The position numbers and the translations under genes were made by a program. Below the pieces are notes generated by a model. That model was not told the DNA's origin, made no database searches, and worked only from the letters and a program-made list of their open reading frames with translations. DNA of 22,489 nt from a virus. Lineage: Duplodnaviria; Heunggongvirae; Uroviricota; Caudoviricetes. Every line of letters starts with the position of its first letter. The first letter of the stretch is position 1. Positions 16,484 to 17,887 of this stretch are shown piece after piece. The stretch lies in IMG/VR virus record IMGVR_UViG_2778261450_000009, positions 1 through 22,489 of that record; one strand, 5' to 3'.

Positions 16484-16945
16484 ATGAAGACACTAAACGC
16501 AACTCCAGAAACAACTAATTTTATCAACTGCGGCTGTGTTACGCTTGAAGGCTTAGAACTTGATTCCTTTGCATTAAATATTGCAAATTTGCTAAGTGCT
16601 GTACGCACATTCCATCTTCTTGATTGTGCTCGCTCAAAGGAACTAGGCATTGAGGTAATGGAATTTATCCATGAATATGCTCTATCTGCGGCTTCTCCTG
16701 CACGACAAAAACAATCCTTCCCTAAAAGCTGGCTGGTTAACCTTCACACCCAACGCGAAGCCTGCGGCTTAACAACCGCCGAACTCGCCAGGCTGCTCGA
16801 TCTCGATGAAGAAATCATCATCCAGTGGGAGAGCGGAGAGTATGAACCAACTATCAGTATGCTTATCCCACTGGCAAATATTCTTGGCTGCGATCCGATG
16901 TGGCTGTTAACTGGTAAACCAACAGGTGGGGATACTTGCGCATGA
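16484..16945 (+). CDS. Two-domain protein: N-terminal uncharacterised domain fused to a C-terminal XRE-type HTH domain
   Basis: ATG at 16484 with GGTGGG RBS. C-terminal CGLTTAELARLLDLDEEIIIQWESGEYEPTISMLIPLANILGCDPMWLL is an XRE-like HTH. The N-terminal domain (LEGLELDSFALNIANLLSAVRTFHLL...LGIEVMEFIHEYALSAA) is paralogous to part of ORF 17522..17887. Confidence 0.65.
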   Translation: MKTLNATPETTNFINCGCVTLEGLELDSFALNIANLLSAVRTFHLLDCARSKELGIEVMEFIHEYALSAASPARQKQSFPKSWLVNLHTQREACGLTTAELARLLDLDEEIIIQWESGEYEPTISMLIPLANILGCDPMWLLTGKPTGGDTCA

Positions 16946-17184
16946 AAAACTGTGATGCTTACCACATATGTCTCATTGGTGAATTGCTTGATTGCATACA
17001 AAAAAGCGCTGAGCGCAATAATAAAAATATAACATACGGTAATCTGGCAATAATTTCAGAGGATATTAAGAGCATCGCTCTTAAATTCAAGAGCGATGCG
17101 AACATTGACGACACTATTTACGCTTATCTTGCGAAAATAGTTGACGGATCCAAAAACCAGCCTCTGGATGAGGACCGTCAGTAA
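16942..17184 (+). CDS. Hypothetical protein (80 aa), translationally coupled to the HTH-fusion gene
   Basis: ATG overlaps the upstream stop (ATGA). The ORF-track start is TTG at 16936. Confidence 0.55.
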   Translation: MKNCDAYHICLIGELLDCIQKSAERNNKNITYGNLAIISEDIKSIALKFKSDANIDDTIYAYLAKIVDGSKNQPLDEDRQ

Positions 17185-17350
17185 AAAATTCATTTGATGA
17201 ACATGAGAAGTGCTTCATAAAATTTACTTTATCTTCTGGTGAAACCACCTGACGAATTAATGCAGAGATAGCGACTTTGTGCCACATTAATTCTTTTTTG
17301 AGCGCTGAAATTTCTTTTTCAAGTTGCTCTTCGTTAATCATTTTATCCTC
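17114..17350 (-). CDS. Hypothetical protein (78 aa) on the opposite strand, convergent and overlapping the 3' end of 16942..17184
   Basis: ATG at 17350 preceded by GGAGGA; N-terminal coiled-coil-like sequence (MINEEQLEKEISALKKEL...). The 71-nt convergent overlap makes it uncertain. Confidence 0.35.
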   Translation of the reverse strand, partial: EDKMINEEQLEKEISALKKELMWHKVAISALIRQVVSPEDKVNFMKHFSCSSNEFFTDGPHPEAGFWIRQLFSQDKRK

Positions 17351-17521
17351 CATTGAGAGCTGAATTGTAAATGGAGACCAACACGCGGCTACGTGTGGTC
17401 GTGCGCCGGACACGGATAAGCATCCGGTAACTAATTATCAATCATTGAGGAAACAGTCTCAATATGAAAACACTTCTGAGACTCGCTATATAGCAGAACA
17501 TATAAGTCAGCTGAGGAAGCC

Positions 17522-17887
17522 ATGAAAAAGTTCGAAAACATAACTGTTCTCCATGTTGATGACTTTGATTATGCAAACCAGGAATATCTCCCGGAGGTTG
17601 TAAAGGCAATAGATGTAGCCGATATAGTGATTAGAGGAAAGAGAATTGTCAAAAACAGGCTCGCATGCACTTCAGGAGCAATGACAGAAACAACCTCACA
17701 ACAAGATGATTATGAAGGCATTTGTCTGGAGCCTGATTCATTTGCGGTAAATATTTATCATTTATTGCATGCAACACAGGTATTACATATGTCCAGTAAT
17801 CACGAAACAAAAGTACTTGGCAGCGAAATTCTGAATTTTGCATGTGAATATGCAAAAGCTGCTGCCGAAAAAGAATTAGCGCAATAA
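17522..17887 (+). CDS. Hypothetical protein (121 aa) carrying a paralogue of the N-terminal domain of the HTH-fusion protein
   Basis: CLEPDSFAVNIYHLLHATQVLHMSSNHETKVLGSEILNFACEYAKAAAEK aligns with the 16484..16945 N-domain at roughly one third identity by eye. GAGGAAG RBS. Confidence 0.6.
   Translation: MKKFENITVLHVDDFDYANQEYLPEVVKAIDVADIVIRGKRIVKNRLACTSGAMTETTSQQDDYEGICLEPDSFAVNIYHLLHATQVLHMSSNHETKVLGSEILNFACEYAKAAAEKELAQ

Follow-up and report, generated by a model that had tools for sequence, protein, structure and literature searches.

A helical-hairpin domain shared by a DNA-binding protein and a small HTH-less protein in the probable leftward early operon of a phiP27-like Escherichia coli prophage

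The stretch of DNA analyzed here, hereafter the window, comprises 22,489 nucleotides (positions 1 to 22,489 of IMG/VR record IMGVR_UViG_2778261450_000009) and corresponds to a lambdoid prophage of E. coli that is a close relative of the Shiga toxin (Stx) 2e phage phiP27, to which positions 16742–19300 are 96.6% identical. Two open reading frames (ORFs) on its plus strand, designated ORF1 and ORF2, encode copies of the same helical hairpin, named domain X, which is fused to a DNA-binding helix-turn-helix (HTH) domain in ORF1 and occurs in ORF2 without any HTH. The data support X as an autonomous helical-hairpin interaction module and make it plausible that, in this phage, the two genes form a cassette in which a known regulatory design has been built from shuffled modules (X, a second module named E, and HTH) on an uncatalogued domain. 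The two proteins are organized as follows, with protein positions in amino acids (aa) and model confidence as the predicted local distance difference test (pLDDT):

16484..16945, plus strand: ORF1, 153 aa, X hairpin plus one hybrid HTH; a short allele, the protein being usually an X-HTH-HTH form of 230 aa
16544..16693, plus strand: X domain of ORF1, aa 21–70, N-domain type A1, subfamily X-alpha
16724..16912, plus strand: HTH domain of ORF1, aa 81–143, 434/P22-c2 type by Pfam HTH_3, Foldseek, and phmmer
17522..17887, plus strand: ORF2, 121 aa, E module plus X hairpin, no HTH
17522..17686, plus strand: E module of ORF2, aa 1–55, a separate mobile N-terminal module (pLDDT <50)
17714..17866, plus strand: X domain of ORF2, aa 65–115, with helices predicted to aa 120

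Domain X and the two proteins that carry it

An initial annotation, made from the sequence, had proposed that ORF1 and ORF2 share a novel domain of roughly 55 aa. The shared block was recovered, at a length of about 50 aa (including an EG motif in front) instead of 55, and its similarity is well beyond chance. BLASTP aligned the two proteins with 37.4 bits (E = 7e-9), 19 of 42 residues being identical (45%), and a Smith-Waterman comparison matched residues 24–70 of ORF1 with residues 69–115 of ORF2 over 47 ungapped columns, with a score of 98 against 26.7 ± 4.5 (maximum 54) for shuffled sequences; none of 5000 ORF2 shuffles reached 98 (z = 15.8, Gumbel p ~1e-9). Profile comparisons agreed in both directions, as ORF1 matched the PHROG families of ORF2 (phrog_4587, E = 4e-7; phrog_5451, E = 3e-6) and ORF2 matched that of ORF1 (phrog_4836, E = 2e-4), while an hhalign comparison of the small-protein X profile with type-A N-terminal domains such as that of ORF1 gave 98.1% probability (E = 1e-13). 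The predicted structures also coincide. AlphaFold2 models of both proteins contain the same simple two-helix hairpin, formed by helices 26–45 and 49–69 in ORF1 (pLDDT ~85) and by helices 74–89 and 94–120 in ORF2 (pLDDT ~80), so that homology and predicted fold both have direct support.

The proposed novelty of the domain holds against the curated libraries, since X had no match in Pfam, NCBIfam, PADLOC, or the PDB, and the proteins that carry it are already clustered in PHROGs as being of unknown function. A profile search of PDB sequences returned no relative of X. In Foldseek searches the best PDB match of the ORF2 model had E = 0.38 and the ORF1 model matched through its HTH alone; such fold searches are uninformative for X because the hairpin is too simple and generic. 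The family is narrow, as a hidden Markov model (HMM) search for X yielded 32 matches among 1.84 billion cluster representatives, with no annotated or characterized relative among them and with cluster members that are all labeled "hypothetical". An alignment of 18 X domains resolved two subfamilies, alpha (PDSFAxNI) and beta (DALxNI), each including fused as well as free members; the copies in ORF1 and ORF2 both belong to alpha and are 47% identical. About half of the hairpin residues are hydrophobic, forming broad apolar stripes. Given its ~50 residues and this composition, general protein-folding knowledge suggests that a monomeric X is unlikely to be stable, and for that reason self- or hetero-association into a four-helix bundle would be expected.

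The claim that only ORF1 carries an HTH was borne out. Pfam HTH_3 matched residues 89–141 of ORF1 (E = 1.4e-10) with 41.5 bits against a cut-off of 23, which assigns the protein to the Xre/Cro-C1 HTH_3 family, whereas ORF2 had no Pfam match. AlphaFold2 placed the five helices of the 434/P22-type fold over residues 81–143 (pLDDT 84–93), a low-confidence linker separating them from the X hairpin, and the best Foldseek match of this region was the DNA-binding domain of P22 c2 (TM 0.90, root-mean-square deviation 0.8 Å over 63 residues). In addition, phmmer matched the ORF1 HTH with the 434 and P22 repressors. Judged from sequence and model, it is a genuine 434/P22-type DNA-binding domain. No Pfam match to the CII family was obtained for ORF1, its matches being of the HTH_3 type only, and PADLOC matched just its HTH region (RmrA, CapH, HTH_VI) and nothing in ORF2. 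A toxin-antitoxin or defense-system role was considered and set aside, as NCBIfam and PADLOC gave nothing beyond generic HTH matches.

Homologs of ORF1 are mostly 230 aa long and consist of an N-terminal domain followed by two tandem HTH_3 domains. ORF1 itself is an in-frame hybrid of the two, as positions 16747–16897 match the first HTH (HTH1) and positions 16889–16949 the end of the second (HTH2) in BLAST comparisons with the prophage locus L003. This short single-HTH allele is also found with N-domain types A3, B, C, and E, and is therefore regarded as old and reassorted. The possibility that ORF1 and the next ORF (16942–17184) are fragments of one broken gene was rejected, because the second HTH accounts for the 230-aa forms; a frameshift is likewise contradicted by the in-frame HTH1/HTH2 hybrid and by the next ORF, which is part of an insertion and shows no relation to X.

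In ORF2, the X hairpin is preceded by the E module, which is found elsewhere as E-HTH-HTH or fused to other sequences. The ratio of nonsynonymous to synonymous substitution rates (dN/dS) was 0.46 for E, at a proportion of synonymous differences (pS) of 0.45, and 0.26 for the linker-plus-X part, which indicates purifying selection on both. The start of ORF2 is annotated differently among sources: the phiP27 record gives 121 aa from 17522, and the Prokaryotic Genome Annotation Pipeline (PGAP) gives 68 aa from an internal ATG at 17681 that is preceded by its own AGGAG. Because E is conserved, the 121-aa form is favored, and both products might be made. Directly 3' of the ORF2 stop lies an AT-rich near-perfect palindrome, AATAAATATTCAcTGAATgTTTATT (17890–17914), that may act as a weak terminator or bind a protein.

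Gene order, promoter, and genomic setting of the cassette

The arrangement of an HTH gene directly 3' of the repressor gene cI, followed by a small X gene, was observed at essentially all of the 47 IMG/VR loci and in loci L003–L008, and at the ~50 prophage loci other than the window both genes follow one operator-flanked promoter. Spacing is tight, with an ATGA overlap with the HTH gene in L003 and a start 5 nt past its stop in L009. The association extends to distant lineages: L059 again encodes an X-HTH protein (44% identical overall to the E. coli form) together with a free X, and L057 has two free X paralogs after its HTH gene. Arrays of small helical proteins follow cI in L056, L058, and L059. 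Positions 1983–4316 of L056 encode a hairpin-HTH protein (191 aa), an E-HTH-HTH protein (205 aa), an E-hairpin protein (116 aa), an X protein (66 aa), and a 131-aa helical protein, and in L058 a free X (68 aa, 3001–3207) precedes several other small helical proteins. Operon partnership is thus observed directly, and a functional link between the genes of ORF1 and ORF2 is supported by the conserved adjacency and coupling, by the single shared promoter, and by repeated fusion and fission, as fused and free members exist in both X subfamilies and E is also found fused to HTH-HTH. The elements surrounding the cassette in the window are the following:

15216..15515, minus strand: cro-like gene, first gene of the rightward early operon, with an HTH of YdaS/P22_Cro type (Pfam YdaS_toxin E = 1.8e-12, P22_Cro E = 4.9e-5; phrog_35)
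15524..15619: OR region in the cro-cI spacer, with operator-like 17-mers AYCAAK-N5-MTTGRT at 15524–15540 and 15603–15619
15649..16338, plus strand: cI-type repressor gene, HTH_3 plus Peptidase_S24 (Pfam Peptidase_S24 E = 4e-17, HTH_3 E = 4.9e-8)
16350..16375, plus strand: intrinsic terminator after cI, a 7-bp GC-rich stem followed by a T run
16390..16453, plus strand: probable leftward promoter and operators (pL/OL), with the near-consensus promoter TTGACA-17-TAATAT at 16402–16430 (promoter scan 10/12) between operator-like sites
16950..17520: insertion of ~570 bp absent from canonical loci (BLAST against L003, junction sequences)
17114..17341, minus strand: ORF of 75 aa within the insertion, running antisense to the early-left operon (phrog_20080, function unknown)
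14279..15139, minus strand: gene with ORF6N and KilAC domains (Ant-like, antirepressor-like), directly after cro in the rightward operon

The promoter of the cassette is flanked by operator-like 17-mers at 16390–16406 and 16437–16453. A search with the operator pattern, which was derived partly from those same sites, gave six matches against 1.07 expected, four of them in the two regulatory regions. Independent support came from other prophages, as a type-specific motif common to the cro-cI spacer and the post-cI region was found in L003, L006, phiP27, and L056, so that, with the window included, the motifs of OR and of the cassette promoter co-vary across five immunity types. The motifs are ATCG-N6-CGAT in L003, ATAG-N6-CTAT in L006, of GTATCA type in phiP27, and CTACAT..ATGTAG in L056. 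The first gene after cI is the HTH gene in L003, L006, and phiP27. Since the operator motif is held in common with OR and changes with the immunity type, the promoter is read as pL/OL. The position of the cassette and its operator linkage are directly supported, and from the sequence its promoter is probably pL, driving the first early-left transcription unit in the place of gene N. Among the genes between 14279 and 20039, scans of Pfam and PHROGs matched no N, exo, bet, or gam family.

An insertion parts the two genes both in the window and in phiP27; a 9-bp direct repeat, CATGAAAAA, borders it on either side (16941–16949 and 17521–17529), and it looks like a small moron-type insertion. Its antisense 75-aa ORF has a promoter-like site of its own (17462–17434), with a hairpin just downstream of the ORF (17072–17099); it had no match in NCBIfam or PADLOC, and its Pfam matches were sub-threshold chance matches only. 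On the plus strand, an 80-aa ORF (phrog_23054, 16942–17184) overlaps ORF1 through the ATGA stop/start that at canonical loci links ORF1 with ORF2. This ORF shares 71 nt with the 3' end of the antisense ORF, is left without annotation by PGAP, and showed no similarity to X (hhalign probability <3%).

Near ORF1 and ORF2 the minus strand carries replication genes, ash, lar, the ORF6N/KilAC gene, and the YdaS/Cro-like gene, and the plus strand carries the S24-type cI, ORF1, ORF2, small unknown genes, a gene for an SPFH lipoprotein, xis, and int. The ORF6N/KilAC gene occupies the place of lambda cII, with the Lar and Ash-family genes next. The SPFH gene of the window (19212–20039) is intact; in the 98%-identical prophage of strain CFIAFB20180540 (L002), an IS3-family element splits this gene and IS2 flanks int (10112–12290). 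A 3.2-kb stretch spanning both ORFs was 98% identical to several E. coli chromosomes, and when a 3.2-kb query containing cro, cI, and the cassette was used, 1036 of 5426 complete E. coli genomes were matched, with up to four related regions per genome. The prophages with the cassette include Stx1a-, Stx2a-, Stx2d-, and Stx2e-converting phages.

Possible modes of action of ORF2

The initial annotation suggested that the pair could be a regulator and an anti-regulator, the HTH-less protein titrating the other or heterodimerizing with it, or else that the block is a duplicated sensor domain. A mechanism of this kind can be outlined in which ORF1 would be a 434/P22-c2-type DNA-binding regulator of N-less, phiP27-like lambdoid prophages, and its X domain most likely self-associates into a four-helix bundle, supplying the oligomerization that HTH_3 proteins need. 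Because of the cI-type operators at its promoter, the cassette is probably kept off in lysogens, and it would be switched on at induction or infection. ORF2 would then enter or compete for the X interface, whether through mixed X:X bundles that it builds with ORF1 or through binding to a partner common to both, and would in this way modulate the oligomeric state and DNA binding of ORF1, as SinI acts on SinR or AimX on AimC. What we infer in this scheme is that X associates with itself and with its paralog, in which direction ORF2 acts, and which DNA is targeted. The functional link, the recurrence of fused plus free X in L059, and the common predicted fold all favor such an interpretation.

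The diversity of the family places limits on it. In the HTH protein, the hypervariable N-terminal domain falls into at least nine types, and the HTH part is largely conserved, with many columns at ≥90% identity among 12 diverse members. In ~50 loci the N-domain type corresponded one-to-one with the cI cluster, which places this domain within the immunity mosaic block. Like type A, types B (95.7% probability) and C (96.2%) matched the small-protein X profile in hhalign comparisons, and types E, H, and I constitute a second hairpin family of their own. The small protein exists chiefly as one of two variants, the 121-aa S1 (E-X) and the 66-aa S2 (X only). Several observations made with these classes weigh against the interpretation of ORF2 as an antagonist matched to ORF1. 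No covariation was found, N-domain types A1, C, and E each occurring with both S1 and S2. Types D to I showed no X similarity detectable with the small-protein profile, and types D and E keep a small X protein beside their non-X N-domains. Types B and C pair a fused beta X with a free alpha X that is ~18–30% identical. In L058 the free X gene stands right after cI in an operon without an HTH gene, and in the window itself the insertion with its antisense ORF uncouples ORF2 from ORF1. A strict cognate heterodimer acting by titration would predict covariation, and because none was seen it is not supported as the general mechanism; nor can pairing through matched X domains be universal to the cassette, given the free reassortment, the non-X N-domains, and the HTH-less operon of L058. 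The functional link between the genes is supported, and cognate pairing as a general rule is not. For the present phage, modulation of ORF1 by ORF2 through the X interface is the explanation that we favor, held tentatively because of the missing covariation, the small X proteins beside non-X regulators, and L058.

The same observations suggest a different explanation, in which X binds a common third party, such as a host or phage factor, and ORF1 and ORF2 are not in contact but possibly compete for it. The small X protein would act alone (e.g., in early host takeover, anti-defense, or antirepression), and the HTH fusions would tether its activity to DNA or couple it to DNA. This would fit the way in which the small protein reassorts freely among all N-domain types, the small X of L058 without an HTH gene, the two free X paralogs of L057, the arrays of small helical proteins in L056, L058, and L059, and the invariance of N77, E102, and Y110 in the small-protein family. 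It would also fit the location of the cassette, as lambdoid phages usually keep accessory early genes at the head of pL. However, no such target is known, the conserved polar positions mostly appear to serve the structure, as a helix cap (PDS), a turn (S-x-N), and a Gly at the helix crossing, and the tight coupling to the HTH gene is left unexplained, which makes this alternative somewhat unlikely. The shared block could also be accounted for as a duplicated sensor domain.

It is unlikely that the two proteins act independently, with the shared block as a mere footprint of domain shuffling in a mosaic region. The modules X, E, HTH, and other hairpins have indeed been shuffled extensively, and the two genes are separated by the insertion in this window, but an absence of any functional relation is difficult to reconcile with an adjacency kept across ~50 loci and distant lineages, or with the purifying selection on ORF2. 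In another alternative, the small X would bind the HTH-HTH body of gene 1, which is conserved, instead of the N-domain and act there to co-regulate or inhibit, and the X-type N-domains would represent a copy of it in cis. This would account for the small X kept in types D and E, for its co-inheritance with the conserved HTH part (the N-domain being inherited with cI), and, by Rosetta-stone logic, for the X and E fusions to HTH-HTH, yet it is decidedly improbable in view of L058, which lacks the HTH gene, and of the single-HTH alleles (window and phiP27), which keep the same small protein.

Early gene expression and lysis-lysogeny control in N-less Stx-type phages are essentially unstudied, and no study of these genes was found in the literature on phiP27, N-less lambdoids, or tandem HTH proteins; the two X subfamilies and the mobile module E, absent from Pfam and NCBIfam, are defined here. 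The cassette is a testable candidate for early control in a widespread and medically relevant group of E. coli prophages, and hence for control of toxin-phage induction. A broader and very improbable extension would be that it forms a layer of lysis-lysogeny or inter-prophage control, in which hypervariable, immunity-linked hairpin "barcodes" on a conserved tandem-HTH early regulator specify assemblies that hairpin-only proteins, reassorting freely, poison or rewire in trans; if so, the latter might act across co-resident prophages and affect induction and Shiga-toxin output.

Comparison with known regulator pairs

Among the closest designs is that of SinR, an Xre-type HTH repressor with a small helical domain for oligomerization, and SinI, a small HTH-less protein from the adjacent gene, whose heterocomplex blocks the tetramerization of SinR. 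In this biofilm switch of Bacillus subtilis, SinI is homologous to the domain through which SinR oligomerizes and mimics it (bioRxiv 10.1101/2025.11.23.689978). ORF2 is comparable in being an HTH-less small protein that is homologous to the non-DNA-binding helical domain of a regulator and encoded alongside it. However, the hairpin of ORF1 is N-terminal and its HTH C-terminal, so that domain order and gene order are both reversed, and the pair belongs to an early operon of a Gram-negative phage and does not covary; an evolutionarily maintained match between antagonist and regulator domain was not found here. Neither ORF1 nor ORF2 gave a Pfam match to the Sin domain family at E ≤ 0.1. The pair resembles SinR/SinI in design and, by sequence, lies outside the Sin family.

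In the arbitrium Bacillus phages, the small helical protein AimX binds the oligomerization domain of AimC, which then neither oligomerizes nor binds DNA (bioRxiv 10.1101/2025.11.23.689978). The likeness consists of a phage HTH regulator with a helical domain and a small helical phage protein, the helices being predicted here, and AimC (9iaq_A) was a weak, HTH-only Foldseek match of ORF1, at rank 39. In contrast to ORF2, AimX has not been reported as a paralog of the AimC domain (bioRxiv 10.1101/2025.11.23.689978). AimC is also the prophage repressor itself, whereas the present phage has a separate S24-type cI with the cassette downstream. Regarding 434 cI/Cro and P22 C2, residues 81–143 of ORF1 have the same fold and belong to the same sequence family, but those repressors oligomerize C-terminally, whereas ORF1 has an N-terminal hairpin and mostly tandem-HTH relatives.

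Within the lambdoid phages, the PHROG label "CII-like regulator" (phrog_4836) was considered for ORF1 and is unsupported by sequence or position, the gene being on the pL side downstream of cI. In lambda, the early regulator CII is accompanied by CIII, a small helical modulator encoded in the pL operon, and the present cassette is similar in combining an early phage regulator with a small helical protein. However, ORF1 is the first gene of the probable pL operon and is not located in pR after cro, and to our knowledge CIII is not homologous to any CII domain. The remaining comparison is with lambda N. Although ORF1 is an HTH DNA-binding protein without similarity to N, it resembles N in being encoded first after a leftward promoter that is probably cI-controlled, with its N-terminal part in an immunity-specific mosaic block.

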